Program-made: the position numbers and the translations under genes
Shown: positions 2,611 to 64,000 of the stretch, piece after piece
Layout: each line of letters opens with the position of its first letter
Numbering within the stretch: position 1 is the first letter of the stretch
Assembly: GCA_030704615.1 (NCBI GenBank)
Contig: CM060734.1
Coordinates: forward strand, 19,220,001-19,284,000
DNA from: Takakia lepidozioides
Lineage: Eukaryota > Plantae > Bryophyta
Direction of reading: 5' to 3'
DNA length: 64,000 nt
The notes under the pieces: generated by a model
Databases searched by the model: none
The model's input: the letters and a program-made list of their open reading frames with translations, nothing else
What the model was told of the DNA's origin: nothing

Positions 2611-2674
2611 ATTTACTTCCTCACCTGCTCATCAGCTGTGATTGTCCAACCAGTCACCACTTCATCCTGTAAGC

Positions 2675-3316
2675 TCACAGTGGTGGTTCTTCTAGGATTT
2701 CTATTTCTCCTTCTCTTTCTTCATAGAAATGTGATGGGTAAATGCTGGTTTCCTCTTCAGTTGGTGTTGCTGTCACTACACCACAGCAGATACCTCTCAA
2801 ACAACTTAGGCTTTCCAGCCGCATCTCTGCAACCTGCTCCCACTCTGGGTGTGCAGCAAATAGGGTAGCTTCCTGCTCCTCATCCAGTCCTCCTTTCCAG
2901 TCATACTCTCTGACTCCTCGAGGTCTTCTTGTAGCAGGTAATCTACTAGATTTCTTTGTGGTAATTTGTATCTCGTGTATCCCATTATGCACGGTTAGTA
3001 ACTGAGAATTCCAGTCATGGAATACCCTGGCCTGTTTCAGCCACGGACGTCCCAATAATAAGGAGTAAGCCTCCATGACTTCATCCATTTTTAATACAGT
3101 TACTGTGATCATAAAGATCATTTTCTGTATCTGTATCTTAACTCCTCTTATTAATCCCAATGGCTGTACACTTCTTTGATCTGCCATTGTTACTGTAAAT
3201 GGGGCTGGTTTCATGTTACTTAGACCAAGCTTCTTCCTTAATTGGTCTGTCATGATATTCACTCCAGAACCACCATCTATCAGTACATCAGTTAGTTCTG
3301 TGCTTCCAATTCTCAT
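2675..3316 (-). pseudogene. Retrotransposon aspartic protease region
   Basis: VLIDGGSGVNIM and YSLLLGRPWL motifs; out of frame with both gag and RT. Confidence 0.9.
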
Positions 3317-5835
3317 TGGATTACTGGCATAGAATCATCAAAGTCCATGACTGTTTCTCGCCCTTCCGGCTTCACATTATAACTGGTCACCTTGCTATTC
3401 AGGTCTGTGTTTCCTGTCTCTTGGGCAATTCGATTGATTGCTTGATACAGCCTGTGCCTACAATAAGGTGCCACAGCTAATAGCTGTCCAATGGTAATTT
3501 CTGCTTTGGTCTGGCATATTACTTCAGCCAAAGTCTCTTCATTACTTTGCATGTCTGCATCTTCTTTTTTCCTTTCTTCCTCACTCCCTTCTTTTTCTCC
3601 ATCCGAATCAGAGGAATCTGCCACAGGAATATCAGTACTCTTTTGCATTTCCCTTATAGTATCTGCCACTTCCTTGTGCAGTTCCTTCTCATCTTTCCAA
3701 GTCTCTTCATCTTCAGGCATATCATTGCCACTTCCATTCTCATCTTCTTCCTCTTCTACTGGAGGTATTAGTTTGGCTTTACTTCTTGTTACTATCATTG
3801 TACTTACTTCTGGTACAACACATGGCCTAACCATGTGAGCTGCCACCACTGGGCCCTCATTCACAGGAGCTCTCATCTCATTCTGGTGTCTTATCCAGAA
3901 TGAACAGGCTGCCTTGCGATGTCCTGGCTGATTACAATAGTAACATAGCTCTTCACCATTGGGTCCTCGCCCTTGGTCTGTTCTTGGATTATTTCTATAA
4001 TCCTGATTCCCGGGCTGGTAATTCCCCCTTGGATTACCCTGATAGTTGCCTCTGGAATTTCCTTGGTAATTCCCTCTTGAATTACCTCTCCCTTCCATGC
4101 CATTGTTATAACCACCAGACCTACCATAGTGGTCCTGATCATTGTTTCTTCTTGGCTGGGGCTGCACCTGATGCACCCTTACTTGCCTAGGTTCTCTTGC
4201 AGCTGTCCTTCTGTTGTAGTAACAATTCTCAGTAGAATGGTTATCCATTTTACAGATAGTACAGTGTTTCTCTTTCATGTGGCATTCTGTGGTGGTATGG
4301 CCTTCATTCTGGCACTTTGCACACCATACACCCTTCCTCCAATGTGTTGCAGCCTCTGTGGCATACTTCTTCAAGATTTCTTCCAATTTTTTTTCATAGT
4401 TATCCCTCTTCAACTTCTCCTTTCTCTTACTCTTTCTTTTTAGTTCTTGCTCTTCTTCTTCATCTGACTCATCCTCAGAGTCCTCATCTTCTTTTTTCTC
4501 TCTCCTGAGCATTCCCAATTGCTCAATTCTGTTCGCAGTTTCAAATGCCTCCTCCACTGTATTATGGGGTAACATATCCACTTTCTTTTGCAACTCTGGT
4601 CTTAGTCCACTCACAAACCAAGTCTTCTGTAAACCGGGCGCTGGTACTGCAGCCAGCTTTTCATCATCAATTCCATCTTTTCCATATACTCTTCAACAGT
4701 TTCATGCTTCTTCTGCTTCAGCTGTTGTAAACTTCCATACACTTCATCCTCAGTTTTACTGTCCTGAACCTATTTCAAAATGTTGTATTCAAGCCATTCC
4801 AGGTTAGGAAATGATTATCAGGGAATCTTGCATACCATTCACTTGCTTTCTTGATAAGTGAACAAGGAAACAGTCTCATCTTGGCATCATCGCCATTCTC
4901 ATTGTTCACTATACACATGTGCTCAAATTGGCTAATGTGTACATCGGGATCCCTTTTTCCTGAATATATTGGAAAGGGTGGTTTTGCCCGTGTTGGTTGT
5001 AACGCCATCTGTGGCCCTACCTTCTGCCCACTGACAGGTGCTGGCACCCTTGCTGGTGCTGGTCCTTCAGGACCTGTTGTTTGTGGTGGATCTTCCACCA
5101 AGTGGTGGCCTTGAGCACTCCCTGCTTCTGGCCCCACGATATTCACAGTATTCCCAGCTTCAGTTGCACTACTTCCCACACTCCCTGTCCCCCCAGAGCC
5201 AGATCCAGGCAGCCCGCCTGATCCCCCTGAGCCGACACCTTCGTTGGCCTGTGATCCAAGTGCTCCACTTGATCCAGGTCCAACGGGTTGGGATGTCCTG
5301 GTTGTAGTCTCAACCTCAGCTGTTGGGTCTACTTCTTCATATTCTTCCTCTTCTAATTTCTTCTCTCTGTTTTCATCCTCCAAGTTCTGCCCTTGGGTTT
5401 CTTCTTCACTCATGTAACTCAACTGTAATGGTGTTGGAGAGTCTGAACTCTCCGTTGGCTCTGCCACATCCTCTCTCCTTCTTCACCTTCTGCTTCAGAA
5501 ACTGGAGTTCCTGCTTTTGGTGTTCCATGCCAACTCTTATCAAAGATTTCTGTCAAGTCTTTTATCCAAGGATGTACCTCAGATCTTTCACCTCGTGATT
5601 GATCTTCTTCCTGTACCAATTCCCTTAATCTTTCTTGCAAAGAAACAGAAGGAGTGGCATCCAACTCTAGTTCTTCCGGTATAGGTGATGTACTCTTTGA
5701 TCTTAATGGTGTGAGAGGTCCAGATGATTCCCCTATGTCTATTCCTCTCTCCCAAAGATATGGATAATTAGCTTTCAGATAGCTTTCTCTTTTTGCTGAA
5801 TATCTCTGTCGTCTAGCTTCTCTTTCATCACTCAT
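3313..5835 (-). pseudogene. gag of family A copy 1, split over ORFs 5419-5835, 4775-5467 and 3313-4614
   Basis: Retrotrans_gag-like FPCSLIKKASEWY; three CCHC knuckles (CAKCQNEGHTTTEC, CTICKMDNHSTENC, CYYCNQPGHRKAAC). The first two ORFs are fused in frame in copy 2. Confidence 0.88.
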
Positions 5836-5856
5836 GTCCCATGTCTTTCATTTCTT

Positions 5857-6552
5857 TTAATGTGGCAATAACCAAAACTCTCTTCTGTAATATCTCTCGT
5901 ATATGCCTGGGTTTCTTTCAAGCTTCAATGTACCCTTGGCTATACTTGAAGTCTCCGTTACCATATAACCATATGGCAAACAAGTCTGAAAAGCTGTTCT
6001 TGGTGTGAGTTTGATCCACAAAATATCCTTTGGAATCCAATTCTTTACCAGTACAAGCTCTTCATGCATATGAGTATAAACATTCACCTTTCTTTCTTCC
6101 CAGCCTTCAAACTCTACTCGTTTAATGGATAGCAATGCTATCACATAAACCAATGTTGGTAACCAACGTGCTCTTCCTCTACAGGCTACCTGATAAATCT
6201 TTATCACTCCTTTCTCCAGACCCCATTCTGGATCAGCATCATGCACTCGCTTAAGAATATTTTCTTTACAACCGTCTGGCAATTCCAAGAACCTTTGAAA
6301 GAATTGTTTGGACAATCTTTCTTCCTTCGTTCCACAGGGAATTTGATTCACTTCAAATTCTTTAATGGTCCAACCACCATGATCCCACCAGATGCCTGTC
6401 ACATCTGGTTGTTCATGTCTCAGGTCCCCAGTATGGTCGCCAAATGTCACGCGGCTTTGACTCACCCATCCCTTCGCTATTCGAGGCGGAAACTCCAAGA
6501 TAGAAGAGTTGGAAATCTCTAAGTACTCAGCCCGCGCAGAACAATCAGTCAT
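5857..6552 (-). CDS. Extra ORF upstream of gag, 231 aa, unknown function (copy 1)
   Basis: Open and of identical length in both element copies; C-terminal two thirds nearly identical. Confidence 0.7.
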   Translation of the reverse strand: MTDCSARAEYLEISNSSILEFPPRIAKGWVSQSRVTFGDHTGDLRHEQPDVTGIWWDHGGWTIKEFEVNQIPCGTKEERLSKQFFQRFLELPDGCKENILKRVHDADPEWGLEKGVIKIYQVACRGRARWLPTLVYVIALLSIKRVEFEGWEERKVNVYTHMHEELVLVKNWIPKDILWIKLTPRTAFQTCLPYGYMVTETSSIAKGTLKLERNPGIYERYYRREFWLLPH

Positions 6553-7071
6553 GACCTACAGCTAGTGTATCATGGGGGTGTTTCCTATTTGTTTCCCTTT
6601 TGGTATTCATGTTAGCTATCTTACCATTGATAATTAAGTATCAGTTTGCTTCATCAATCTATTGGATTCCATCAACTCATCCATTCATTTCACAGCTTCA
6701 CTCAGATCTCTCTACACAGTGTGATTGTATCGTAAAAGTATCCGATTATGATTTATCAGGTATCAAGCCGAAGCCATTGTGTCTCTAATCTGCTCTACAA
6801 TATCATTACAGCCTTGCATATATCAAGCATCTACTCATCATCTCTCTATCTTCACTTCCGTTCTTCATCTCGCCCGATCCCCTCTCCTCCAGACCAAGAA
6901 GTCCTCCTCCGAATGATATCCCTCAATTCCCCGTTTTTCCCTTTATCTTCCTATCCGTGGTTCTAACCGTTTCCCTCACTAACCGTCGTCTGTGAACTAA
7001 CATGTTCCCTTCGCAGGTGTTGTTCCCCACAGTCGTTCCCTGTCCTACTCTTCGTTCCCTATGATCGTGAC

Positions 7072-7322
7072 AGCTGTGTCAAGCTGTGACTGGCTGTGTG
7101 AAACTGTGACGGGCTGTGACTGGCTGTGCGACTGTGTTTGGCTGTGCCGGGCTGTGTCGGCTGTGACGACTGTGTCGGCTGTGACGACTGTGTCGGCTGT
7201 GACGACTGTGTCTGCTCTGACGACTGTGACGGGCTGTGTTGGCTGTGTCGGCTGTGACGACTGTGACGGGCTGTGTTGGCTGTGTCGGCTGTGATGACTG
7301 TGACGACTGTGACGGGCTGTGT
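7072..7322. repeat. 9-bp-based tandem array (GGCTGTGAC/GACTGTGTC) near the 5' end of family A copy 1
   Basis: Directly visible repeated ggctgtgac/ctgtgtc units. Confidence 0.95.
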
Positions 7323-7444
7323 AACCCCCCTCTACAGTGCGCTGTTGTCACCCCTAAGGCTCCTGTTGGTCTCAGTCTGTGCAAAAATTAAGGGTACCCT
7401 ACAGATCCCGTATAAGTGTCTAAGTCCCCGACAATCCTCTAATA

Positions 7445-9430
7445 GCCCCTCATTCACAGGAGCTCTCATCTCATTCTGGTGTCTGATCCAGAATGGACAG
7501 GCTGCCTTGCGATATCCGGCCTGATTACAATAGTAACACAGTTCTTCCCCATTAGGTCCTCGTCCTTGGTCTGTTCTAGGATTGTTTCTGTAATCCTGAT
7601 TCCCTGGCTGGTAATTCCCCCTTGGATTACCCTGATAGTTGCCTCTGGAATTTCCTTGGTAATTCCTTCTTGGATTACCTCTCCCTTCCATGCCATTGTT
7701 ATAACCACCAGACCTACCATAGTGGTCCTGATCACTGTTTCTTCTTGGCTGGGGCTGCACTTGATGCACCCTTACTTGCCTAGGTTCTCTTGCTGCTGTC
7801 CTTCTGTTGTAGTAACAATTCTCAGTAGAATGGTTATCCATTTTATAGATAGTACAGTGTTTCTCCTTCATGTGGCATTCTGTGGTGGTATGGCCTTCAT
7901 TCTGGCACTTTGCACACCAAACACCCTTCCTCCAATGTGTTGCAGCCTCTGTGGCATACTTCTTCAAGATTTATTCTAATTTTTTCTCTTAGCTATCCCT
8001 CTTCAACTTTTCTTTCCTCTTACTCTTCCTCTTAAGCTCTTGCTCTTCTTCCTCATCTGACTCATCCTCAGAGTCCTCATCATCCATTTTCTCTCTCATG
8101 AGCATTCCCAATTGTTCAATTCTGTTCGCTGTTTCAAATGCCTCCTCCACTGTATTATGGGGTAACATATCCATTTTCTTTTGCAACTCTGGTCTTAGTC
8201 CACTCACAAACCAAGTCTTCTGTAAACCTGGTGCTGGAACAACAGTCAGTTTTTTCATCATCAATTCCATCTTTTCCATATACTCCTCAACAGTTTCATG
8301 CTTATTTTGCTTTAACTGTTGTAAACTTTCATACACTCATCCTTTGTTTTACTTGTCCTGAACCTATTTCGGAATGTTGTATTCAAGCCATTCCAGGTTA
8401 GGAAATGATTATCAGGGAATCTTGCATACCATTCACTTGCTTTCTTTATAAGTGAACAAGGAAACAGTCTCATCTTGGCATCATCGCCATTCTCATTGTT
8501 CACAATACACATGTGCTCAAATTGGCTAATGTATACATCAGGATCCCCTTTTCCTGAATATATTGGAAAAGGTGGTTTTGCCCGTGTTGGTTGTAACGTC
8601 ATTTGTGGTGCTACCCCCTGCCCACTGACAGGTGTTGGCCCCCTTGCTGGTGCTGGTCCTTGAGGACCTGTTGTAGTTGTGATGGTACTTCCACCAAGTG
8701 CTGGCCCCTGAGCACTCCCTGCTACTAGCCCCACTATATTCACAGTATTCCCAGCTTCAGTTGCACTACTTCCCACACTCCCTGTCCCCCCAGAGCCAGA
8801 TCCAGGCTGCCCGCCTGATCCCCCTAAGCCGACACCTTCGTTGGCCTGTGATCCAAGTGCTCCACTTGATCCAGGTCCAACGGGTTGGGATGTCCTGGTT
8901 GTAGTCTCAACCTCAGCTGTTGGGTCTACTTCTTCATACTCTTCCTCTTCCAATTTCTTCTCTTCATCTTCCAAGTTCTGCCCTTGGGTTTCTTTTTCTT
9001 CACTCATGTAACTCAATTGCAATGGTGTTGGAGAGTCTGAACTCTCCGTTGGTTCTGCCACATCCTCTCCTCCTTCTTCGTCTTCCGTCTCAGAAACTGG
9101 AGTTCCTGCTTTTGGTGTTCCATGCCAACTCTTATCAAAGATTTCTATCAAATCTTTTATCCAGGGATGTACCTCAGATCTTTCACCTCGTGGTTGATCT
9201 TCATCATGTACCAATTCCCTTAATCTTTCTTGCAAAGAAAAAGAAGGAGTGGCATCCAACTCTAGTTCTTCCGGTATGGGTGATGTACTCTCTGATCTTA
9301 ATGGTGTGAGAGGTCCAGATGATTCCCCTATGTCTATTCCTCTCTCCCAAAGATATGGATAATTAGCTTTCAGATAACTTTCTTTTTTTGCTGAATATCT
9401 CTGGAGTCTAGCTTCTCTTTCATCACTCCT
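7445..9430 (-). pseudogene. gag of family A copy 2 (frameshift and stop; truncated by nested insertion)
   Basis: ORFs 8312-9259, 7989-8336 and 7332-7967 match the gag of copy 1. Confidence 0.88.
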
Positions 9431-9450
9431 GTCCCATGTCTTTCATTTCT

Positions 9451-10146
9451 TTAATGTGACAATAACCAAAACTCTCTTCTGTAGTATCTCTCGTATATGC
9501 CTGGGTTTCTTTCAAGCTTCAATGCACCCTTGGCTATACTAGAAGTCTCCGTTACCATATAACCATATGGCAAACAAGTCTGGAAAGCTGTTCTTGGTGT
9601 GAGTTTGATCCACAAAATATCCTTTGGAATCCAATTCTTTACCAGAACAAGCTCCTCATGCATATGAGTATAAACATTCACCTTCATTTCCTCCAAGCCT
9701 TCAAACTCTACTCGCTTAATGGATAGCAATGCTATCACATAAACCAGTGTTGGTAACCAACGTGCTCTTCCTCTACAGGCCACCTGATAAATCTTTATCA
9801 CTCCTTTCTCCAGACCCCACTCAGGGTCAGCATCATGCACTCTTTTAAGAATGTTTTCTTTACAACCGTCTGGCAATTCCAAGAACCTCTGAAAGAATTG
9901 TTTGGACAATCTTTCCTTCTCAGTTTCACAGGGAATTTGATTCACATCAAATTCTTTAATTCTCCGACCACCATGATCCCACCAGATGCCTGTCACATCT
10001 GGTTGTTCATGACCCAGTTCCCCAGTATGGTCGCCAAATGTCGAGCGGCTTTGACTCACCCATCCCTTCGCTATCCGAGGTGGAAACTCCAGGATATAAG
10101 AGTTGGATATCTCTAAGCGCTCAGCCTGCTCAGAACAATCAATCAT
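9451..10146 (-). CDS. Extra ORF upstream of gag, 231 aa (copy 2)
   Basis: Intact paralogue of 5857-6552. Confidence 0.7.
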   Translation of the reverse strand: MIDCSEQAERLEISNSYILEFPPRIAKGWVSQSRSTFGDHTGELGHEQPDVTGIWWDHGGRRIKEFDVNQIPCETEKERLSKQFFQRFLELPDGCKENILKRVHDADPEWGLEKGVIKIYQVACRGRARWLPTLVYVIALLSIKRVEFEGLEEMKVNVYTHMHEELVLVKNWIPKDILWIKLTPRTAFQTCLPYGYMVTETSSIAKGALKLERNPGIYERYYRREFWLLSH

Positions 10147-10661
10147 GACCTACAGCTAGTGAATCATGGTTGTGCTTCCTGTTTGTATTCCTTCGTGCCT
10201 TCATGTTCTCAATTTATCTTACTGTGGATACTCAAGCATCAGATTGCTTCAGTATCTACCAAGTTCCAATCAATCATTCATTCATTCCACAGCTTCTCTC
10301 ATGTCTCTCTACACAATATGATTGTATCGTTTAAGTATCAGATTAAGATTAATCAGGTATTAGACCAATGCCATGGTGTCCCTATTCTACCCTACTGTAT
10401 GTTTCTACAGCTTGCATCAATTAAGCCTCAATCAAGTCATCATCTCCTCTTCACTGTTTCGCTCTCCATTTTGTCTCCTCCTCCCCTCACCAAGTCGCGC
10501 TCATCCCAGAAGTGATCCCCTTCCTACTGCCGCCCTCCTAATCTACCCGCAAGCTGTTCTAACCACCTAATTAACTAACCGTCACCCCTGAAGTAACACG
10601 TTCCCTCTGCAGATGTCGTTCCCTCACAGTCGTTCCCTGTCAATGATAACTGTTCCCCATG

Positions 10662-10838
10662 TACTGTGACAGACTGTGTCAAGCTGTGCCGAGCTGTGAC
10701 TGGTTGTGTAAAGCAGTGTCGGGTTGTGACTGGCTGTGCGAAGCTGTGGCGGACTGTGTAAAGCTGTGTCGGACTGTGACGGCTGTGACTGGCTGTGCGA
10801 AGCTGTGTCAGGTTGTGTGGAGCTGTGTCGGGCTGTGT
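10662..10838. repeat. Degenerate 9-bp GCTGTG-type tandem array of family A copy 2
   Basis: Same position and motif as 7072-7322. Confidence 0.9.
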
Positions 10839-11929
10839 AACCCCCCTAAAGCCTGCTGTTGCCACCCCTAAGGCTTCTGTTGGTCTCAGTCTGCGCAAAA
10901 ATTAAGGGTACCCCATAGAACCCGTAAAAGCGTCTAAGTCCCAAGCAGCCCTCTAACACACCCCGAGTTGTGCCCAGGCCAGTTCCAAAGGAACAATGGT
11001 GGCCGGGGGTGAGGTGGAGCAGCCCAGAGAGGACGAGGTGGCCAGGCACGAGGTGCAGGCCAAGGGCAAGCTCAACATAGCCAAGGACGCGGAGGTCAGG
11101 GTGGTGACCAAGGCATGGCCAACCGGCTTCAACAGCTGGAGCAGAGGCTCGCTGCCATGGCCACAGCTCAGGTGGTACCGGCTCCAAGGCCGGATGGTCC
11201 ACCTCCTGCTCCTGAGGGAGGAGACATGGGAGGCATGGGAATCATGTGCGGGGCAACACTACCACTAGTGAGGGATGCCACTACCACTACCACTATGGGT
11301 GGGGCACCACTACCACTAGTGTCGGGCAGCACTACCACTACCACTATGAGCGGGGCAGCACTACCACTAGTGCAAGTGGAGTCAGCTGCGGCAATGACTT
11401 GAGGAGCGGCACGAGTTCCTGAGCCACGGGGTGCGAAGGTGGAGTTGGATCCATAGCGTGGGGAGGCAAGCCGTCAGGCCAGGCTTCCTCAGTCATTCAC
11501 ATTGGCGGAGACAGTGTCGACGCCGTCCATGGCACCTAGTTCTCGCCCGACTGTTACCGAGGCGGAGGTTACTATGCCATTGGGGAGAGCTACACGGGCA
11601 TCACCACTACCTAGTGTTGTCAAGGCTATGACAGCTAGTGTGCTGCTGGGGGCGGCCACAGCTGTGTGCCAGGCTCTATTGTTCTCGGCTACCATGATTG
11701 CGATGCCGGGGGTAAGACCAGCTGAGGTGTTCAGGCTGGCAGTTACACTCTGTGAGAGTGGGGAGGTTACTTCATCTTCTACGGAGATAGTGGGAGGTGT
11801 AGTGCCGGAGAGATCCCTCGGATGTGAGGGTCAAGACTGCCACGGCGGCGCAAGCTGCAGCTACCAGGTTGATGAAGCTGCCAGCTAGGCTAGCCATTGA
11901 GCGCGCCATGGTGACACCTGGAGTTGTCA

Positions 11930-12320
11930 TGTTAGACAACCAGGATGACATTTTCTGTTTGAGTGGACCGGCAAGCAAGAGGTACCGCTGCGAGTCTTGT
12001 TGGACTCTGGAGCTCAGCCATTGATGCTGGGCAGAGCTGCTATTGCAGGCTTGGGCCTACGGAGGCGGATATAGAGCCATGCCCTTTCTAGATACAGACA
12101 TCTCTGGGGGGATCAGAGCAGGCTCGGGGCATGATACGGCATGAGTTGACTATCAGACTACAGCCGGATCATCCTACAGATGGCTCAGTGATGAGAGCCA
12201 AGGCCATTGTGACAGACGCGGTCTCGTACGATGTCCTTGTTGGTAGGGCAGTGTTGTACCCCATGGGCTTCACCCTGGATTTTTGGGAGGAGTCAGCTTC
12301 CTATAGGCCTGGATGGTAGT
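11930..12320 (+). pseudogene. Aspartic protease of family B (frameshifted)
   Basis: VPLRVLLDSGAQPLMLGR at ~11982-12035; YDVLVGRAVLYPMGFTLDFWEE. Confidence 0.85.
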
Positions 12321-12699
12321 CAGGGGAGGGCCGGCGTATGCAGCTCCCCATGACATTCATAGGAGGAGTTGCGGTTGCCCAGCGAGGCAAGATGCCAACA
12401 CTGGCAGCATTCACAGCTGCAGTGACTTGGCCTGGAGAGTTGTTGGATGGCAACACTCATTCACAGGATGTGTCACCTCCGGGAGAGCACGATGACATGT
12501 ATGGTATGGCGGAGTTGCCTGCCATGGTTGCTCACACTCCATTGTGGGGCTCGAGCAAGGATTTGCAGCGGGTTGCTGATTGTCGTGTGCAACAAGCCTG
12601 GGTAGAGGCTTTTGTACCGTCAGGAGAGGAGGACAGTGCAGGGATTGCACCAGGACCACCTCAGTTGTCACCATTGGACACCACACCGATCGTGTGGCA

Positions 12700-13589
12700 G
12701 TGTCCGAATGAAGGCATTTGCCTTCTGGACTTGTTTGGCGGGATCAGCACCGGGTTGGCTGCTGTTCTACAGGCAGGGTGTACGAGTACGACGTTACTTG
12801 TATGTGGAGAGGGTTGAGAGCGCACGACGCGTCTCACTCCGTCATGTTGCTCAGTTGGTGCAGCAGTACCCTGAGTTGTTGCCGGTGTCTACAGTTCGTG
12901 GATATAAGCAGGCCTTGCCAGCAGACATCTCTATGCTGGGGGCGCAGGATTTGGAGCGGGTTGGCTCCATTGATTTGGTAGTGGCAGGTTGGCCCTGCCA
13001 AGGGCATTCATCAGCCGGGCATGGCAATGGATTGCGAGACTTGAGCTCGGGTCTGTTTTGGGAGATGGTGCAAGTTTTGCAGCTTCAACAGGCTGTATCT
13101 CCAGTATACATCTTGGAGAATGTGCCACTGATGGGCGATTCTCGGGCCAGGGTGATGGCCAGTGTGCATCAACTCTGGTCATGGCTTGGGTCAGCAGTGT
13201 TGCTGGATGTAGCTGCAGTGGGGTCACGGGCTCATCGTCCACGGCTATGGTGGATTAACTTGATGCCACCCGCACTGCTCAAGCGTGCATTTGATGGGAT
13301 GCAGCGGCCAGCACACCTCACAGTTGATAGCATCTTGGACACGGGGAGGCAGTCTCAGGGTGTGAGACACGATGACCGTCCGCCTTTGGCAGTGGTCAAC
13401 AAGGTGGGTCGACCACAAGCAACACTACCTACACTGGTCAGCTTCCCAGGATCACATGCTTTCCAAGATAGTGGACCTGGCCTCCTGTGGGATGCTCAGT
13501 TGCAGCAGTTAGTGGAGTCTAATGCCGACGAGCGAGAGCGGGCTATGGGTATTTCCACTTGGACCACGGCGTTGCTTTCTTTTTCTGAG
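12700..13589 (+). pseudogene. C5 cytosine DNA methyltransferase domain inside retrotransposon pol (1-nt frameshift at ~12778; motif X deleted)
   Basis: Motif I LLDLFGG (12722-12742), II YLYVE, III ADI, IV IDLVVAGWPCQG (Cys at 12996-12998), VI YILENV (13116-13124), VIII AHRPRLWW (13236-13244), IX ERERAMG. Confidence 0.93.
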
Positions 13590-15839
13590 CCGCTTGAGAG
13601 CGCACAGATTGAAATTACATCCAGGGAAGTGCAAGTTCTTCCACAACCAGATTGAGTATCTGGGCCACATAATATATCCTGGAGGATTGGGGGTGCAACA
13701 GACTAAGGTAGAGGCCATCGCACAGATTCCACGTCCCATGGATGTGAGCCGAGTTCGAGCTTTCATGGGGTTGGCAAACTACTATAGATGGTTTGTCAAG
13801 GGATTTAGTGCTATTGCAAAGGCTCTAACAAAGTTGACCAAGGTAGACCAGGAGTGGCAGTGGGAAGATGAGCAAGAGCGAGCTTTTCAGGAGCTCAAGA
13901 CGAGGTTGACCTCGGCGCCGATCTTGAGACGACCTATCGGGGGCGTCCCTTTCAGGTGCATACAGATTGGAGCATGCTGGGGCTTGGAGCGGTGCTCACA
14001 CAGGTGGATGATGAGGGAAGAGAGTTTGTAGTGGCTTATGCTAGCCGCTCAAACAACGCTGCAAAGTCTAAGTATAGCTCATATGAGGGGGAGTGCTTAG
14101 CTGTAGTGTGGGCCATGACACACTTCAGGTGCTATCTATACGACAATCTCTTCACCCTTGTCAAGGATCACCAGCCACTCAAGTGGTTGATGGAGTCAGA
14201 CAAGCTTACGGGGAAGCTAGCACGGTGGGCACTTATACTCCAAGAGTATGACTTCCAGGTTGTGCATCGACCGGGTTTGGTCAATAGGGATGCAGATGGA
14301 TTGAGTCGCAATCCATGCACGAGCCAGCAGGATGACACCGGAGCTCGGTGGCATGGTGAGACGGACGAGGAGATGGTGCCGGGATGGCATGCATTTGCCT
14401 TTTTGTGTATCTTGGCATCAGGAGGTCAGATTGGACCTACAACAGGGATGACTGTAGATGGAGTGTCTGAGGACCCTGAGGCTAGTGATGAGCTAGGTGG
14501 TGCCAGAAATATACATGAGAATTCGGTTGTGTTGGACTACCTCCGCACTGGAGACACAGCAGCTAGTGTGACTGCCAATGAGAGGGATCGGATCCTGCAA
14601 CGAGCCAAGAGGTTCAAGTGGGAGGGGATACACCTGCTTCGAGTGTGGGAGGATGGTCGGGTGAGGATCGTGCCTCACCCAACACAACGTGCACGGTTAG
14701 TGCGGCATGCCCATGAGGAGTTGGAACATTTTGGAGTGCGACGCACTCATAGTTTACTGCAGAGGCAGTATTGGTGGCGTGGTATGCACACAGAGGTGCA
14801 ATAGTTTGTGGCTAGGTGCATGGTGTGTGACAAGGTGCGTGCTTCATTCAACGCCTCTACATCACAATTGCATCCATTACCCATCATGGGATTGGGCTAC
14901 AGGTGGAGTCTTGACTTCGCAGGGCCATTGCCACTAACGATGCGTCACCACAGATATGTGTTGGTGATGGTGGAGCACTTCTCCAAGTGGATTGAGTTGG
15001 TTCCATTGCCTGACAAGGCTAGTGAGGGGGCTGCGTATGCATTCCTGGATCGTGTGCTTAGCCGATTTGGTGCTCCAGCTGAGGTACTCACGGACCAATG
15101 AAGAGAGTTCTTGGGGGAGTTTCAGGCTTTGTGTGATAAAGCCTTAATAGACCACCGTACAACTTCTCGAGATCATCCCGAGGCTGATGGCTTAGGAGAG
15201 AGAGTGGTTCAGATAGTGAAGAGGGGTTTGCGCAAGTATGGCTTGCGAAAATGACACCTAGGAGATTGAGATCTTCAGGTACCTTGGCTAGCCATGGGCT
15301 ATAGGTTTAGCAAGCAAGCATCAATTGCCTCCTTCTCACCATATTTCCTTCTCTTTGGCCGAGAGCCAGATTTGTCTGCGTCTATTCGCAGGGAGGCTGC
15401 AGTAGTCCTCAACCTTGATGATCCGGATGTGTGGACACAAGCATGTGCCCAGGGGGTAGAGTTGTTCCAGAGAGTCATGTCTATGGCTTTTGAGAATCTT
15501 GCTATTGCCCAACACCAAGACACATTGAGGTATGCCACTATACATGGAGGGGGATATCGGCCAGGTGTTCGGCGTTTCCACCCTGGGGACTATATGTATC
15601 TGCAGCAGACAACGCCTACGACCTTGGATGTCACAGCAAGACGTGTGATTCTAAAGATCAGGGAGGTGTTGCCTTCAGGAGTGTTGATTCTGGAGGGTCG
15701 AGATAGCATGGTATGGAAGGACCATGTGCGTAATTGTGCGCTATGTTACCTTCCACATGTGGATGGGAGGATAGATCCCAACCTTGCAGTGGTACATGCA
15801 GGATTGCGTTGCATGCTATGTGGGCATGCTGGGTATTGA
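13590..15839 (+). pseudogene. Family B pol: RT C-terminal part, RNase H, integrase (stops and frameshifts)
   Basis: KLHPGKCKFF..IEYLGH; HTDWS, YSSYEGECLA, DHQPLKWL; HAHEELEHFG..CMVC; WSLDFAGP, VLTDQ; stops at 14802, 15099, ~15252 and ~15267. Confidence 0.93.
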
Positions 15840-16183
15840 CTCCTATGAGCTTGGCCTCCCATGTCTTGTGAGCTGCCACTAGTCATATCCACTGCCACTA
15901 TCCCAAGCAGTGTGGACATAACCAATCTCCATCAAGAACCCTCTCAAGAGGTGGTGTCAAGCATCCCATGTGCCAACCTCTTAAGCATCGATCACACACC
16001 AGTATAATTCACAGGTTGCAAGACGGCGACTAACGATGGGGCAACTCTTGTACCCGGCCTCTTGATCTATTGAGTTTGAGTGTAGTAGGGACAGTGGTGG
16101 AGGACTTAGTGAGGCTATAGCCACTATCACATCTTGTGGCTACCTGGACTTAGAGGGACCTAAGCGCCAGCTAGGGGGGCGAT

Positions 16184-16722
16184 TGTGATGGACTAGTGGC
16201 AGCCTAGCGATGGACTAGTAGTAGCTAGTGTCAGCCTAGTGGTGGACTAGTGGCTGCACTAGTGGTGGACTAGTGGTTGTACTAGTGGCAGGACTAGCGG
16301 TGCACTAGTGGTAAACTAGTGATAGACTAATGTTTGGTGTGCACATGTGTTGTGTGGTTTTGGACAGCGATGTAGTTGTGTAGCGATATGTATGCGCACA
16401 ACAGCTGTCAAGTTATTTTACCACTAGTGTGAAGTTAGCTAGAAAATAGCTAGCTTTCATATATTGACATTTGGGATTGATCCAAGTGTCAATCCAGGGG
16501 CCAATACATGTTTGGGCACCTGGCGTGGTTATCTTCACGGCAGATCGCGGTGGGCTCATCTTTCTCGAGTTGAGCCTCACCACGTCTAGCTATGGCGCCG
16601 TAGTGTGGATTCCCCATGGCGTGGGGTGCAGTTGGCTCGACTTTATATTTGAGTGATGTTTTCATGTGCAAGTGTGTGGGTTTGAGAGAGCTTGTATGCT
16701 TGTATCATTCCTTTCCTTATCA
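16184..16722 (+). repeat. 3' LTR of family B containing an ACTAGT-rich array
   Basis: TG(TGATG)...TTATCA after the PPT; 16406-16722 aligns with 59185-59511. Confidence 0.8.
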
Positions 16723-16723
16723 T

Positions 16724-16910
16724 TGTGATGGACTAGTGGCTGCACTAGTGGTGGCTAGTGGCAGCCTAGTGTTGGACTAGTGGTTGCACTAGTGGCAGGA
16801 CTAGCGGTGCACTAGTGGTAAACTAGTGATAGACTAGTGTTTGGTGTGCACATGTGTTGTGTGGTTTTGGACAACAATGTAGTTGTGTAGCGATATGTAT
16901 GTGCACGACA
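16724..16910 (+). repeat. Second copy of the LTR 5' part (ACTAGT array)
   Basis: Direct repeat of ~16184-16402. Confidence 0.85.
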
Positions 16911-16917
16911 AACCGGT

Positions 16918-17017
16918 CCGAGACTGGAGGACAATGATAGACATAGAAAGACAGTCCTGTCGAAGGGCCGAGACTCGAGGACGATGATAGACATAGATAA
17001 ACAGTCCTGTCGAAGGG
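16918..17017. repeat. 2 x 50-bp tandem repeat
   Basis: ccgagact.gaggac.atgatagacataga...cagtcctgtcgaaggg occurs twice. Confidence 0.9.
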
Positions 17018-17506
17018 CTGATGCATTGGAGCCGAACTGTTCGAATGAATTGGCTTCTATAGAGACTATGTTCAGTATTGGTTTGCGTCGAAGACTATGG
17101 TTTTGGGTCCTATGGGATGGTGATGGTTGATAAGTGCCCATAGCCAGGGATCTCAATGGCTATACAAATTTGGTTTGGTGATGCTCAAATAAATTACTCT
17201 AGACATTTTGGGATGTATCTCGACGGGATGTCTTTCTATCTTACTATGTTCTAATCATAGATCGGGAGATCTCCCTTGCCTCAGTGGAGATGTCGAACTT
17301 GGGACAACAGTCATAATTCTCCTGTACTTCTGGAGTGACAATGTTTGGCAATTTTTTGTAGGCTAATATTAAAAAAATGAAACAACTGTGATTGACAGGA
17401 GGTCTCCCGTGCTGCCCGTGAAACTATAGAAAACTAGGATTTCAACTCATATTGCCATGACCAACATATTCTCACCATCGAGCAAGAGGAACACTTTGCT
17501 CAAGTA

Positions 17507-18965
17507 TTGGCCGAGATCCAGGTGGGTGATATAACTCAGGTTCAATTAGCTAAGTTACATGCTTTGATTCAAAGAAACTTGTCTGTGTTCAGTAAAGGAT
17601 CTCATGATCTTGGTCGGACCAGTATCTTGAATCATGAGATTGTCACTGATGGGAATCCAGTCAAACAATATGCCTACCGCGAGTCCGTTCGTGAGAGAGC
17701 AATGGTTCAGGAAGAAATTAAGAAAATGTTGAATGTTGGTGTCATTCGCCCTTCTGTGTCACCTTGGGCTAGTCCTATTGTGTTGGTCGCCAAAAAGGAT
17801 GGTTCCACCAGGTTTTGTGTTGACTTCAGACGGCTCAATTCCATGACTAAAAAGGATGTTAATCCTTTGCCTAGAATTAACGAGACCTTGGATCAGCTTA
17901 GTGAGCCACCATTTTCTCTTCCCTTGACCTAGCTTCTGGCTTTTGGCAAGTCCCTTTGACAGAAGCATCTAAAGAGAAAACGGCCTTTACATGCAGATAT
18001 GGCATGTATCAATACGAAACCATGCCATTTAATCTCTGTAACGCCACAACAACATTCCAAAGGCTTATGGATGTGGTGCTTGGCAATCTGAGATGGGAAT
18101 GTGCGTTAGTCTACATTGATGACATAAATGTTTATTCTGCTAATTTCGATTCTCACCTCATTGACCTGCAGCGCGTTTTGTGTCGTCTGAGAGCTGCAGG
18201 CCTCAAGGTTAAGGCCAAAAAGTGCGATTTCTGCATGGCAGAACTTAAATTTCTTGGTCACATCCTCAATGGGGAAGGCATCAAACTTGATGTTAGCAAA
18301 ATCCAGGCAGTATGGGACTTCCCTCTTCCTCGTGACAAACATTGTGTCCGGGCCTTTCTTGGTCTTGCCTCCTATTATAGACGCTTTATCTTACATTTTG
18401 CTAACATGGCCGGTCCCTTGTTCAGACTTCTATGCAAGGATGTTCGCTTTCATTGGGGCATACCTGAGACCAAGGCCTTTGAACAGCTGAAGATAGCCCT
18501 CACAACTGCTCCAGTGCTGGTTTTTCCAGACTTCTCCCTTCCCTTTCTTTTACAAACAGATGCGAGTGACATGGCTATTTCTGCAATTCTTAGCCAAGTT
18601 CGGGATGGTAGATAACATGTCGTGGCTTACACATCTAGGCGACTTGATAAACATGAAAAAAATTATAGTATCACTGACAAGGAGGGGTTAGCTGTCATTT
18701 TTGGGGTGAAACACTTCAGGCAGTACCTGCATGGTTGTTATTTCACAGTGGAGACCGATCATCTCCCTCTCAAGGCCCTTAAAACTCCTCGTGAATTATC
18801 TGGCAAGCTTGCTAGATGGTCGTTGCTTCTACAAGGTTTTGAATATGATATAGTTTACAAGAAGGGGAAAGAAAACGGCAATGCTGATGCACTTACCAGG
18901 GGCGAGACCAAGACCCTTGTTCCTTACACGACTCTGGATGATTTGGCTCGCATGCAGCATCCTGA
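17507..18965 (+). pseudogene. Ty3/Gypsy pol fragment (RT and RNase H), third family
   Basis: SPWASPIVLVAKKDGSTRFCVDFRRLN; VYIDD; LQTDAS; NYSITDKEGLA; frameshift at ~17900 and stop at 18613. Confidence 0.93.
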
Positions 18966-19317
18966 TCGTTCGTTGCCTGATTTACACCTACATGCATCTT
19001 TTTTCCACCACCCGCACGACCATCTTTCATGCACTGTGGATATAGGCTCACAACGACAGATAATACCTGTACTTGTGTATGAAACATGGAGTCCACTTCC
19101 GGATGATACCTCTGTTCCGATGTAGGCTACAATTGACAGAGTACACCTCCGTTACTATGTATGAAAAAGGGTTCCCATTGTTGGGCGATACCTCTATACC
19201 GATGTAGGCTGTGACGGGCATACTATACATCTATTGGTGTATGCAACAGGGATTATATTTTTAGGTGATGGGCTTCATCATGCTCAGTTTGCTCGTTCGC
19301 AGCGTACTAGACTACTA

Positions 19318-21215
19318 CTAGATATTTTCATTCTTTTTGTCTGCGTCGTTCGCAGCGTACATATTTTCTTTCACTTTCTGTGCCTCCATCTTTCCAATAC
19401 GTTTGCAGCTTGACTTGGAGGTATTCTTATGAGGACGCATCGTCCACAAAACGTTGTTCGTGTGAATCCAGGTTGGTGGATCAGAAGGGTTGAACTCCCA
19501 AACTTTACTCCAACAATTTCTATATCTCTCCACATCGTCGGTTGTACTACCTTTAGGTCTCCACCACTCCACATGGACCTTGCGATACTGAGGACTCGAC
19601 TTGTCCCGAATGACCTCTGAAATTGCCACACCCATCTAGACTGGATATGTCTCAGTGTCTGCTGGCCGAACAAGAACGAAATTTCCAACCTCAACGTCCT
19701 GAAGGGGTTCATTGGCTCCTTAGGCTTTTGGCTCCTTGGTCCACAATATGGATCCATCTGATTCACATCCTCTTCCTCTTCCGCCTCTTCATCATTTTCA
19801 ACCCTAATCCCATCTCTTTCATGAGTTTCCTTCCAACAGGTCGAAGGCCAGAACCCTTCCTGAAGCTTGTCATTGGGAGGTGCAAAGATTTGTCAAGTTC
19901 TACTAGAATATCCTTCCAGTATTCATCAAAGTTCTTCATGATGGCTCCATAGTTGCTGTCCAGCTCCATTCCACGTTTCCAAAATTCACGATACTTAGAT
20001 ATACCATTTAGAATATGGACATTTTTCTCAGACTCCCCTTCACTCTTACCTTCCCAAATAGGCTTAAGCAGAACAGGGTCTGGGTCCCCCTTTGGGAGAA
20101 GGGGAGACCTCCCGTCCTCCGCCACCTTCCACATTTTCACAGCCAGTCAGCGTCGGTACCCGATTTCTTGTATTTCATCACTGGCCATCTCTCACCATCT
20201 ACATAAAATAAAAAAATATGCATATCTGTCTGTCCGATCAGCCGGTCGTTCCCGTCAATTATATACCCGTCCACATACTTCTTGAAATCTAGAACCTCTT
20301 GTATCAACTAAGGAATGAATGAGAGCTTTTGAGACTCCATAAACAGGTGCATGAGATCCGCCATGATATAGATATTATTCTGTTCCAGCTTCTTCGAGAG
20401 ATAACTAAAGTATGCATCAATGTCCTCGTGGGTATGACCTACCATCAAGAATCCAAGCTGGATCTCTTCAAAAACCCCTCTCGATGTCAGAAGCGACAGA
20501 AATACCAACATCCATCGATTCTTGTTGTCCTTTACGCAGTTGTCCATTTGTAGATAGAGTTGACGTGGTGATGGGTTTGGTCTATCTTGTCCTTCAACAG
20601 TAAAGGGCTTGAGAGCTCTTTCACACCTCAATTTTCCCCTCATCAGGGTTTCAAAAAAGGAGTTTTGCATTGGTGAATCGAAAAAAATTCTTGTTTCATG
20701 GCAAGGTGCTTTCTCAAGTTGTCGAAGACAACGAGCCAACGAGCCGATCGTAAAGTTGGGATCATTCGACAAGAATTCGTTGGAGAACTGAGCATAGGCA
20801 CCATCACCATGTCCGTGGGTCACCATGCCTGTCAGTGATATCGGCAGCTGCCCTAGATCAGATATCATCTTGTTTGTTACCTGTAACCTTGGCAACGCAG
20901 TCTTTGAATGGTCCATCTTATCGTGAATAATACAGAGAAATTCCGACCCCATCATCGTTGACTCATTCCTCCAACTGTGATAGAGCCTTCGACACGACTC
21001 TTGATGCTTCAGGTGTCTCTCCAGTTTTTTCTTATGTTTTTTCTGCTCCTCAGTTCGGTTGACTGATTTGTGGATTAAGTCTTTAAAGATCTTGCAATCC
21101 GTGCACTTCGCAAACTTACCACCTGCCTTCCAAATCTCCACGTTCGCAAAGATCTTTGTTTTAATCCGGCTAATGGCCGACTTCGACGACGATTTAAGAC
21201 CTAGAAGTCTGTTCG
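19318..21215 (-). mobile_element. Sola-like DDE DNA-transposon transposase remnant, copy 1
   Basis: FAKCTDC; IIHDKMD; LYLQMDNCVKDNKNR; FLMVGHTHEDIDA; fragmented C-terminal ORFs. Family assigned from motif recall; termini not found. Confidence 0.72.
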
Positions 21216-21397
21216 CCTAAAACCACAGCAAACTGGACATAAATAAAAAGAAAACGTGTCCATTACAAGAAATGATGCCATGAATGAGGACGGGAGGTCT
21301 CCTGTCCTCTTTGGTATGACTCTTACCTAGAAGTCTGTTCGCCTGAAACAACAGCAAACTGGACATAAATAAAAAGAAAAAGTGTCCATTAAAAGAC
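21198..21397. repeat. ~72-bp direct repeat, two copies about 127 bp apart
   Basis: acctagaagtctgttcgcct...ggacataaataaaaagaaaa..gtgtccatta occurs twice. Confidence 0.85.
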
Positions 21398-24100: not shown

Positions 24101-33339
<9,239 letters not shown>

Positions 33340-42600: not shown

Positions 42601-43226
42601 TTTCTGTTCCTACCTCCACGAATTCCATCACCTAGTGACATACCTTTACAGCCTTTAACGTCCAATTCGGTAAATCTAACACTCATTGAGGTGGGCAGTT
42701 TGATTTCTGGACTTTCCAAAGCAAGGCTTGTATCAAATGAACTTCCTGATGGCTGTCTATCTAAGTCTAAACCGTCTCTATTTGGCACCTGCGGACCCCA
42801 CTCAGATTCGCTGAGGTCCTTTACAACCTCAGTCGAGATCATGGAATTGTCCACAGGCTTTAATTCCTCCTCCCGGCCCAATCTAGAATCCACTTCTTCC
42901 CGCTTGGTTCTCTCTCGAGGAGGCTCCCCACCGAGCTGTCGCTTTGTTGAAGCCAAAAATGAAAGGCGAGGAATGCACATCACGGGCACCACTGGTAGGC
43001 CATTCGCATACAGTCGCTCCATATCTACATCTACGATTTCCCTGCGAAATTGTTGCCTGTAATCAGAATGCCTGGTCTGACAATTATATCCTGGAGTCCC
43101 TGTGAAAGAAGGAACAGTTGCCTGATGCTTACGTCCGATCTGAGGCCATACGCGTGGACAGCCAGACATCACCGCTGAGCTGGATGAACCCCAGTGCGAA
43201 CGACCCTTTGGGAAAACGGTCTCCAT
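39616..43226 (-). CDS. Plant SANT-domain protein (ELM2-like motif, SANT, conserved FWEAVWPRLL domain). Exons: 43226-42132, 41846-41031, 40599-39616. C-terminus possibly frameshifted.
   Basis: IGRKHQATVP; WTDKEVAAFVLGLHLFGKDL..YYYGQFY; LTGDFRISKARANDLFWEAVWPRLLARKWHSE; GT-AG introns in phase. Confidence 0.85.
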
Positions 43227-59179: not shown

Positions 59180-59511
59180 TGATGTGTCAAGTTATTTTAC
59201 CACTAGTGTGAAACTAGCTAGGAAATAGCTAGCTTTTACATATTGACATTTGGGATTGGCCCAAGTGTCAATCCAGGGGTCAAGGCAGATTTAGGCCCTG
59301 GAGTGGTTATCTTCACGGCAAGCGCGGGAGGCTCATCTTTCTCGAGTTGAGCCTCACCGCGCCTAGCTATGGCGCCGTAGTGTGGATTCCCCATGGCGTG
59401 GGGTGCACTTGGCTTGACTTGTATTTGAGTGATGAGGTTATATATGCATGAGTTTATGCTTCAGCTTTGTGAGCTCGCATGAGCTGAAGCTTGTATTCTT
59501 CTTCTTTATCA
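59180..59511 (+). repeat. 5' LTR of family B
   Basis: TGAT...ATCA termini; similarity to the 3' LTR stops exactly at ttatca. Confidence 0.82.
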
Positions 59512-59523
59512 CTCGAGAAAGAT
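59512..59523 (+). promoter_or_regulatory. Putative self-priming primer-binding site
   Basis: ctcgagaaagat is the exact reverse complement of atctttctcgag (59335-59346) inside the LTR; no TGG tRNA-type PBS. Confidence 0.7.
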
Positions 59524-62994: not shown

Positions 62995-64000
62995 ATGGAG
63001 GAGATGTATGGAGCTACCAAGGGGCCACGAAGGTACTCTGGGGCGGTGGGCACCATCGAGTTGGATGATTTTATCCAAGAGTTTGATAGTTGGTGTGATT
63101 TGCAGCAAATGCGCAATCCACAACTATTTACGCCTTTCATGGCATGGAAGGGGCTGTTTCAGCACCTTGAGGGGCCGCCTATGGATGATTACCATGAGTT
63201 CAGGCGGGGGCATGAGGTTGAGATCGAGGAGTGGAGGATGTACTGGTCACCCGACTATGTCTCCATCACTAGGGGCACTAGAGCCACGAGGGCAGTGGCT
63301 ACACCTGCCGCTGCACCGGCAGCTTCAGCAAGCAGCAGTGGGACTGGTGGTACAGTAGCTACGACGTCCACCCAAGCCACTACCGCACCAGCACTAGCAC
63401 CCGTGCCTGCCTTCAACCCTGTTGTGGAGTTCTTCGAAGAGTTGAGAGGGAACTACCAAGGGGTGAGGACAGAGAAGTTGCGGAGCTTGCAAGAGTTCCA
63501 ACGGAAGCCGACCGAGAGCTTGAGGGAGGCTTTCACTCGCATGAGGCGCTTGATAAATGTAACCCAAGGGGTTACGGAAGCTCAGGCAGTCCAATTCTGG
63601 TATGTGATATTGGACAAGGAGCTGAGGAGAAGGGTGCGGGATGCAACTCTCCTACAAGCGGCCCAACCCACCTTAGCAAGTGGTGCTCCTAGCCAACCAC
63701 CACCTCAACGTGCTCAAGGCAACAAGGGGGCTCAGGTGAAGCTCAGGGAAGGGCAGAGAGGACCTCAGATGCAGGGGTCTCTCCCTTCATTTGCTGGCCA
63801 ACAACGGGCGGATGTGGTGTGCTGGACATGTGGAGGACCCCATGTCAAGAAGGATTGTCCAGAGGGAGGCAAAGGGCCGGCACATGCACAGCCTGCACAG
63901 TTACAGTGTGGGCATTGTGGCAAACACGGGCATGGAGAGGCTCAGTGTTATGGTTTGCATCCTGAGTTGCGCCCAGGCCAGTTCCAAGGGAACAATGGTG
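62995..64000 (+). CDS. gag of family B (open to window end)
   Basis: IELDDFIQEFDSWCD; LQEFQRKPTESLREAFTRM; knuckles CWTCGGPHVKKDC and CGHCGKHGHGEAQC. Confidence 0.88.
   Translation, partial: MEEMYGATKGPRRYSGAVGTIELDDFIQEFDSWCDLQQMRNPQLFTPFMAWKGLFQHLEGPPMDDYHEFRRGHEVEIEEWRMYWSPDYVSITRGTRATRAVATPAAAPAASASSSGTGGTVATTSTQATTAPALAPVPAFNPVVEFFEELRGNYQGVRTEKLRSLQEFQRKPTESLREAFTRMRRLINVTQGVTEAQAVQFWYVILDKELRRRVRDATLLQAAQPTLASGAPSQPPPQRAQGNKGAQVKLREGQRGPQMQGSLPSFAGQQRADVVCWTCGGPHVKKDCPEGGKGPAHAQPAQLQCGHCGKHGHGEAQCYGLHPELRPGQFQGNNG

Follow-up and report, generated by a model that had tools for sequence, protein, structure and literature searches.

A dead split-repeat Ty3/Gypsy retroelement with a DNMT3-like methyltransferase domain in Takakia lepidozioides, and its relatives in liverworts and Sphagnum

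The window analysed here is a stretch of 64,000 nucleotides from the bryophyte Takakia lepidozioides (assembly GCA_030704615.1, contig CM060734.1, positions 19,220,001 to 19,284,000 of the forward strand), and it contains parts of two members of one retroelement family. The first member, copy 1, has a C5 cytosine DNA methyltransferase (DNMT) domain located between the aspartic protease (PR) and the reverse transcriptase (RT), and RNase H (RH), integrase (IN), a PHD finger and a set of split terminal repeats lie downstream. Of the second member, copy 2, the 5' part is included. The features are as follows, in window positions.

10,959..11,900, plus strand: C-terminal remnant of the gag of copy 1 (tblastn to the Marchantia relative P0125; 43-bp overlap with the gag of copy 2)
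11,900..12,320, plus strand: aspartic protease, with LLDSGA at 11,997-12,014; frameshifts and stops present
12,700..13,589, plus strand: C5 cytosine methyltransferase of DNMT3-like type, with motifs I-IX but missing motif X; frameshifted at about 12,776-12,785
12,725-12,742, frame 2: motif I, LDLFGG
12,798-12,818, frame 3: motif II
12,921-12,938, frame 3: motif III
12,993-13,001, frame 3: motif IV, PCQ
13,107-13,124, frame 3: motif VI, ILENV
13,227-13,253, frame 3: motif VIII, RAHRPR
13,530-13,550, frame 3: motif IX, ERERAMG
13,589..13,590, plus strand: deletion joint, about 1.07 kb lost (tblastx to L001, L003, L004, L008, L016, L019, L029 and L040)
13,591..14,310, plus strand: end of RT, and RNase H (PF00078 below cut-off; PF17917, E 4.2e-35; frameshift near 13,940)
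14,690..15,800, plus strand: integrase, zinc finger and core (PF17921, E 1.7e-9; tblastn)
15,810..16,008, plus strand: PHD finger, its distal part (about 15,833-16,008) inverted (minus-strand match to the PHD of P0169, P0174 and P0212)
16,173..16,182, plus strand: polypurine tract adjoining repeat B1, from the sequence
16,183..16,403, plus strand: repeat B1, with CA end; 93% identical to B2 over 180 bp
16,404..16,405, plus strand: 2-nt spacer of the internal CA-NN-TG junction
16,406..16,722, plus strand: repeat A2, with TG start; 90% identical to 59,185-59,434; self-priming complement at 16,558-16,569
16,723..16,910, plus strand: repeat B2, its CA end being the 3' end of the element; read depth drops about 200-fold beyond 16,982
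59,185..59,511, plus strand: repeat A1, with TG start, the 5' end of copy 2
59,512..59,523, plus strand: predicted primer-binding site of copy 2, able to pair at all 12 positions with 59,335-59,346 in A1; none of 40 controls equal
62,995..64,000, plus strand: gag start of copy 2, open to the window end; 54% identical to residues 1-357 of P0125

An earlier note on this DNA had claimed that motifs I, II, III, IV, VI, VIII and IX lie in order between the protease and RT, with one frameshift. Three-frame translation and the motif coordinates bore out both points, with the frameshift located between motifs I and II. The Pfam search for DNA_methylase (PF00145) that the note had proposed gave a match at E 2.2e-10 and 40.9 bits, above the cut-off of 22 bits. 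These results confirmed that the ordered motifs I-IX in the window are real and far exceed chance. The identification as a C5 cytosine methyltransferase held, with motifs I-IX in the window and motif X, deleted in the window copy, kept in P0020 and in the family loci covering it.

Copy 1 was found to be damaged at several places. Comparison with eight loci showed that the deletion of about 1.07 kb removed motif X, the linker that carries a conserved stop in the relatives, and the N-terminal two thirds of RT, and four stops were found in 13,947-15,830. Contigs ending at 13,589 were observed in runs X5 and X6 (two each), and contigs differing from the window at the DNMT frameshift were observed in runs X1 (13), X2 (9) and X5 (2). 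As there are contigs that differ from the window at the frameshift or leave it at 13,589, the lesions of copy 1 are not common to the whole family. Opposite-strand joints at the PHD inversion were present in all four runs. At 10,958/10,959 the gag of copy 1 gives way to an inverted Gypsy element, whose LTR begins with a minus-strand TG at 10,958; a deletion within gag was therefore rejected in favour of interruption by another element, and with this element inserted in gag the 5' part of copy 1 falls to the left of the window. Since motif X and most of RT are missing, copy 1 is dead and cannot be active.

The inverted element (69-10,958, minus strand), inserted into the gag of copy 1, is free of DNMT, and its LTR and gag are tandemly duplicated (3,854-7,212 and 7,447-10,829, 89%). 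A fragment of a third Gypsy family, with RT and RNase H, lies directly behind copy 1 at 17,438-19,125.

The second family member claimed by the earlier note was recovered at 59,185, its repeat A being 90% identical over 253 bp and its gag overlap 91% identical over 43 bp; its DNMT position lies beyond the window end at 64,000. The leader of copy 2 contains a long CTGTG-based satellite (61,023-62,134), and similar repeats occur in the inverted Gypsy element, within its LTR. The description of the element as an LTR retrotransposon did not hold in the conventional sense, as two full direct flanking LTRs are absent and the repeats are split in the order A-coding-B-A-B. This layout is complete in L032, L040, L047, L050, L054 and L072, and also in L057 with a short B2. 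The 5' repeats start with TG in all 23 cases and B ends in CA, the B1/A2 joint in the family is CA-NN-TG with a variable two-base spacer, and a polypurine tract precedes B1 at the same place in 21 of the 22 loci with a PHD finger. Target duplications of 4 bp were found in five of the seven loci with both ends, and were absent in the other two, L047 and L072. Six loci stop after a single B, and the one of these short forms with both ends present, L016, also has a 4-bp duplication. Such split-repeat ends escape finders that look for two LTRs.

To place copy 1 in its family, relatives were collected from sequence databases and metagenomes. The sequence search returned 179 homologues similar in length to the window DNMT and 56 longer ones. 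Among the matches listed (120 of the 179 of similar length), the named relatives came from Marchantia polymorpha, M. paleacea, Calypogeia fissa, Riccia sorocarpa and Sphagnum, and were about 59-68% identical; a scan of IMG/VR gave 14 pattern matches and no relative. DNMT, RT, RH and IN are included in a single ORF in P0160, P0174, P0192, P0193 and P0212, and the full-length relatives P0192, P0193 and P0212 contain PR-DNMT-RT-RH-IN(-PHD) in one ORF. The order gag-PR-DNMT-RT-RH-IN-PHD was kept, as far as the contigs reach, in the best 80 of 307 confirmed metagenome loci (71 distinct at 99% identity). A one-off insertion, for which the earlier note had expected other copies to lack the domain, was not what the relatives displayed, as DNMT was found at this position in Sphagnum and in three genera of liverworts.

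In run X1, 62,362 contigs were placed on window positions 10,400-17,200, and their summed depth, which is not a copy number, reached 0.5-1.1 million across DNMT and 0.7-1.2 million across RT-IN, compared with about 1,300 beyond the end of the element and 47-82 for the longer single contigs listed. As the depth over DNMT is like that over RT-IN, we infer that the family is very abundant and carries DNMT throughout.

In the dN/dS comparison suggested in the earlier note, Ka/Ks was as low for DNMT as for RT and integrase, and the three ran in parallel across all Ks bins. The median Ka/Ks by Ks bin was 0.58/0.38/0.26/0.11 for DNMT, 0.57/0.35/0.25/0.03 for RT (the last bin being one pair) and 0.58/0.32/0.28/0.09 for IN, based on 78/81 stretches with stop codons masked and on pairs that are not independent; the DNMT value of 0.11 at Ks 1-2 came from 45 pairs. 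These values show that DNMT is under purifying selection like RT and integrase. Among the loci covering each residue, the catalytic Cys was kept in 72 of 73, the Asn of ENV in 78 of 78 and the Asp of motif X in 67 of 68, so the motif that the window copy has lost, and that the earlier note had asked about in the family consensus, is present in the family. A stop-free DNMT stretch was found in just 8 of 78 loci, and most copies are therefore dead. Taken with the homologues and the domain order in the 80 loci, the Ka/Ks values support the claim of a family-wide, retroelement-borne DNMT in land plants.

In a tree of element domains only, the window DNMT was placed in a clade of 19 rows (SH-aLRT 99) with Calypogeia, Marchantia and Sphagnum. 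Ks between the window DNMT and the Sphagnum-type loci was above 2.3, and G+C was 47% in the window versus 39-41% in two Sphagnum-type loci. In a second subfamily, comprising most of L041-L080, the Pro-Cys of the catalytic motif is replaced by Glu-Cys (35 of 73 loci have the Glu), and motif X reads 'GRGMD'.

The closest relatives of the window copy belong to the clade with 'GQAMD' at motif X, in which an in-frame stop followed by CAR (CAA or CAG) was found after DNMT, with RT resuming in the same frame, in 22 of 29 loci; the remaining seven were frameshifted, interrupted or cut before the stop site. The stop lies 100-148 codons past the start of motif X in this clade. In 18 Sphagnum-type loci it is TAG or TAA followed by CAACC, and in L028, L030, L033 and L039 it is TAG-CAR-YYA, which is a readthrough signal of plant viruses. 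Proteins of Marchantia, Calypogeia and Sphagnum, and also P0020, a relative at 83-85% identity with motif X present, reach their C-terminus 98-100 residues after motif X begins (98 in P0020). The corresponding region is deleted in the window copy, for which the stop is predicted from these relatives. The GRGMD subfamily and several deeper members have no shared stop before RT, and the DNMT-RT frame is continuous in that subfamily and in P0160, P0192, P0193 and P0212. As the stop-CAR is conserved with RT in frame, the main product is likely Gag-PR-DNMT, with RT-RH-IN-PHD likely made by readthrough. The earlier note had treated DNMT as part of a Pol polyprotein; in the clade of the window RT follows in the same frame, but behind a conserved stop that closes the Gag-PR-DNMT frame.

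We compared the DNMT domain with known methyltransferases by profile and by predicted fold. A profile of 16 relatives had DNMT3A, DNMT3C and DNMT3B as its best PDB matches (E 2.5e-14 to 1e-10), followed by M.HaeIII (1.7e-6) and 4onj (2.3e-6), which we take to be a DRM enzyme; the single window protein matched DNMT3A weakly (E 0.003). The AlphaFold model of the intact relative P0001 (pLDDT 87.7) had DNMT3A as its top Foldseek match (E 1.6e-18), and VIA-align ranked DNMT3B (Z 28.3, rmsd 2.6, 278 aligned) and DNMT3A (27.3) above M.MpeI (24.7) and DNMT1 (19.3). The motif order is canonical and not rearranged as in DRM. By profile and fold rank, the element DNMT thus appears closer to DNMT3 than to the other families compared, and the DNMT3-like label given in the earlier note is supported by DNMT3A, DNMT3B and DNMT3C ranking first. 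Cellular DNMT3 enzymes (animal DNMT3A/B and moss DNMT3) are its best matches in sequence and fold and share the canonical motif order, whereas the element DNMT is about 20-25% identical to them, lacks PWWP and ADD domains, is intronless and lies inside a retroelement.

Domains of this kind are prone to misannotation as host or bacterial genes. The family member P0429 is filed as 'uncultured Leptolyngbya sp.', and many JGI members are named 'site-specific DNA-cytosine methylase'; these labels probably reflect plant or algal DNA in metagenome bins.

The closest described element is KnitGypsy-Dnmt3 of Klebsormidium nitens (de Mendoza et al. 2018, PMC5890265), which, according to the accessible text of that paper, has an unrearranged Dnmt3 with conserved catalytic residues in a Gypsy coding region, evidence of purifying selection, and DIRS-like A-coding-B-A-B repeats combined with Gypsy domains. 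Dnmt3 inside a Gypsy coding region with PR, RT, RH and DDE IN was likewise found in the relatives of copy 1. The likeness is by description, as no named Klebsormidium sequence was among the homologues found. The two differ in that the DNMT of KnitGypsy-Dnmt3 is in the same ORF as RT, whereas the clade of the window has an in-frame stop between them, and self-priming, the CA-NN-TG junction and the 4-bp duplications were found only here when compared with the accessible text (PMC5890265). The epigenetic system encoded by a transposable element that the earlier note envisaged is not a new one, the element being of the same kind as the charophyte element published in that paper (PMC5890265).

Other known elements share fewer features. 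SymbioDIRS-Dnmt3 of Symbiodinium also has Dnmt3 in a retroelement Pol and A-coding-B-A-B repeats, but it has a tyrosine recombinase where a DDE integrase is found here, and its capture is described as unrelated (PMC5890265). Assignment to DIRS/Ngaro was rejected, as rve and H2C2 integrase domains were found in full-length relatives and no recombinase family matched in 15 proteins. Tf1/Sushi and the plant Tcn1 chromoviruses, the latter found in mosses and club-mosses, are Ty3/Gypsy elements without a tRNA primer and with predicted self-priming, as here, but, as described by Neumann et al. (2019, PMC6317226), they have a chromodomain and LTRs of the conventional kind, in contrast to the PHD finger, DNMT and split repeats of the present family. 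Troyka (Kojima 2025, PMC12440569) shares the point of being an unusual LTR-type element filed near Gypsy, and was rejected for its CG..CG ends, 3-bp duplications, ordinary LTR pair and, in the accessible description, occurrence in animals only. Gypsy-7a_cRei of Chlamydomonas has a PHD finger, yet its description, as far as accessible, includes neither DNMT nor split repeats.

In addition, related Gypsy-PHD polyproteins with DNMT between RNase H and integrase, instead of between protease and RT, were found (P0169, P0171, P0173, P0195 and P0198). Three of them, P0173, P0195 and P0198, come from Hariotina reticulata, a chlorophyte, and the accessible text of the 2018 paper does not mention this lineage (PMC5890265). 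The DNMTs at this site form a separate clade (SH-aLRT 99) with long branches, which may reflect either relocation or a second capture.

The ends of the elements carry a candidate priming signal. In five of eight elements, the bases right behind the 5' A repeat could pair exactly, over 12-16 nt and at offset 0, with a stretch halfway along A, and none of 40 controls did as well. A self-priming match of at least 12 of 14 was found in 11 of 23 5' repeats, the other 12 being below this, and a TATA box was located upstream of the best self-match in 16 of the 23; at the corresponding place in copy 2 of the window none was seen. Two pairs among these loci, L029/L032 and L046/L047, probably represent one insertion each. 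Three subfamilies have three different self-priming sequences, and no tRNA genes were found in the 64-kb window. The self-complementarity is a predicted self-priming signature of the Tf1 type.

In the standard scheme of reverse transcription, the minus strand starts at the end of A and the plus strand at the start of B, and the cDNA should therefore carry B-NN-A at both ends. The integrated form would then be a permutation in which A2/B2 marks where the cDNA ends were joined, and CA-NN-TG where the element was opened. In such a route the RNA would start in the central part of A, about 30 nt downstream of the TATA box, and would prime itself as Tf1 does; reverse transcription would yield a linear cDNA with B-NN-A at both ends; these ends would be joined, forming the A2/B2 joint, and integrase would open the internal CA-NN-TG beside the primer-binding site. 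A symmetric circle predicts the isomer A-B-A-coding-B half the time, but B was not found before the 5' A repeat in any of the 23 5' ends, so the end-joining step would need an asymmetry.

This missing isomer, together with the A-B-A-B layout shared with DIRS, would fit a second route, in which the 3' end of the RNA is the template for B2, as has been suggested for split-repeat elements of the DIRS/Ngaro group, and B2 does not arise by joining of cDNA ends. We regard copying from the RNA as a serious but clearly less probable option, because A stops where the primer-binding site lies and B1 follows directly on the polypurine tract, which makes A2/B2 exactly the expected joint of cDNA ends, and because the family has a DDE integrase and 4-bp duplications while a tyrosine recombinase was not found.

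We read copy 1 as a dead copy of an abundant split-repeat Ty3/Gypsy family of the KnitGypsy-Dnmt3 kind, whose active members would make Gag-protease-DNMT3, express the remainder by readthrough and methylate their own cDNA, and we put the probability of this reading at about 0.62. The DNMT would be packed in the particle at Gag-like amounts and would methylate the new cDNA, and the inserted copy would then arrive with the mark of host repeats already on it. We favour the element's own cDNA as the substrate, given the conserved catalytic residues and the expected packing of the enzyme alongside Gag. Methylation of cDNA has also been proposed for DIRS elements (de Mendoza et al. 2018, PMC5890265).

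The base composition gave no sign of self-methylation in CG and CHG depletion. No extra CG loss was found in the element, the observed/expected CG being 0.56 in DNMT and 0.49 in RT-IN versus 0.26 and 0.50 in the DNMT-free Gypsy elements of the window. This result would suit a domain retained as a binder of nucleic acid or chromatin (for RNA packaging, handling of cDNA ends or, with the PHD finger, target choice) with little or no methylation, as would the production of DNMT with Gag and not with integrase in the clade of the window. The algal homologue points the same way, as the KnitGypsy-Dnmt3 domain did not methylate yeast DNA, a result that its authors call inconclusive (PMC5890265). A mere binding role nevertheless seems unlikely, as conservation among the loci extends to the SAM-binding motif, the catalytic Cys, ENV and motif X alike, and the related SymbioDIRS-Dnmt3 domains are described as methylating CG in yeast (PMC5890265).

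Equally improbable in our view is an active DNMT that acts mainly on host chromatin, at the insertion site or genome-wide, for example by silencing rivals or resetting the neighbourhood of new copies. High family abundance and the PHD finger of the integrase would bring DNMT to chromatin, and DNMT3 is reported to carry out de novo CHH methylation in moss (PMC10952607); against this, DNMT is on the Gag side of the stop in the clade of the window, without a constitutive fusion to integrase-PHD, and the methylome of Klebsormidium is described as ordinary and plant-like (PMC5890265). That the domain is a one-off captured fragment of a host gene, or a passenger, in copy 1 is hardly conceivable even though copy 1 is broken at several places, being refuted by the contig depth of DNMT, which is like that of RT-IN, by the locus order, with its shared position in liverworts and Sphagnum, and by Ka/Ks values like those of RT and IN, with introns absent.

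For the preferred reading, a family that would methylate its own cDNA, what was already known is the kind of element, a retroelement-borne Dnmt3 described in a charophyte and in dinoflagellates (PMC5890265). New here are a further host lineage among land plants, a likely readthrough stop, the predicted self-priming signature and the permuted ends, whose TG..CA termini and 4-bp target duplications would suit insertion of end-joined cDNA opened at an internal site. A 2019 opinion article (PMC6338049) states, in its accessible part, that land plants such as tracheophytes lack DNA methylases encoded by transposons. We found no report of a retroelement DNMT in a land plant in the literature within reach, with subscription journals, Repbase Reports, theses and the main 2018 supplement lying largely outside it; the accessible parts of 10.1101/2021.11.30.470311, PMC12344493, PMC10952607 and PMC11982613 report none, and PMC12344493 merely repeats 'streptophytes and dinoflagellates'. 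More tentatively, and we would not lean towards it at present, there may be one lineage of integrase-bearing retroelements that spans green plants from algae to land plants, is self-primed, end-joined and opened at CA-NN-TG in a replication route new for LTR elements, makes DNMT3 in Gag-like amounts at a leaky stop, delivers pre-methylated copies and writes part of the host methylome.

The family is abundant in bryophytes, including the model Marchantia polymorpha, for which mutants exist, and its members there make the role of the element DNMT, a question left by de Mendoza et al., testable genetically. The stop between DNMT and RT and the permuted ends are concrete, testable steps of expression and integration.

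Several other features were noted in the window. Two DUF7869 frames (20,378-21,224 and 54,368-55,219), 68% alike, probably belong to a DNA transposon family, and a lone 3' end of repeat B lies inside the second DUF7869 region at 54,041-54,119 on the minus strand (85% over 80 bp, with CA end). A SANT gene with DUF7650/DUF7952 was identified by Pfam at 39,100-43,241. In a quick tree of 104 rows, none known to be a fern, lycophyte or hornwort, this gene paired with Calypogeia (SH-aLRT 99) on two long branches, beside Cryptomeria and an unnamed row, a placement that by itself points to a probable liverwort affinity; its exon 1 gave a single unnamed match, and the top phmmer matches were mostly representatives from angiosperms at 55-59%. 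A LINE-like fragment (24,881-26,103) and chaperonin-60-like exons (27,000-29,800) were recognised by eye.
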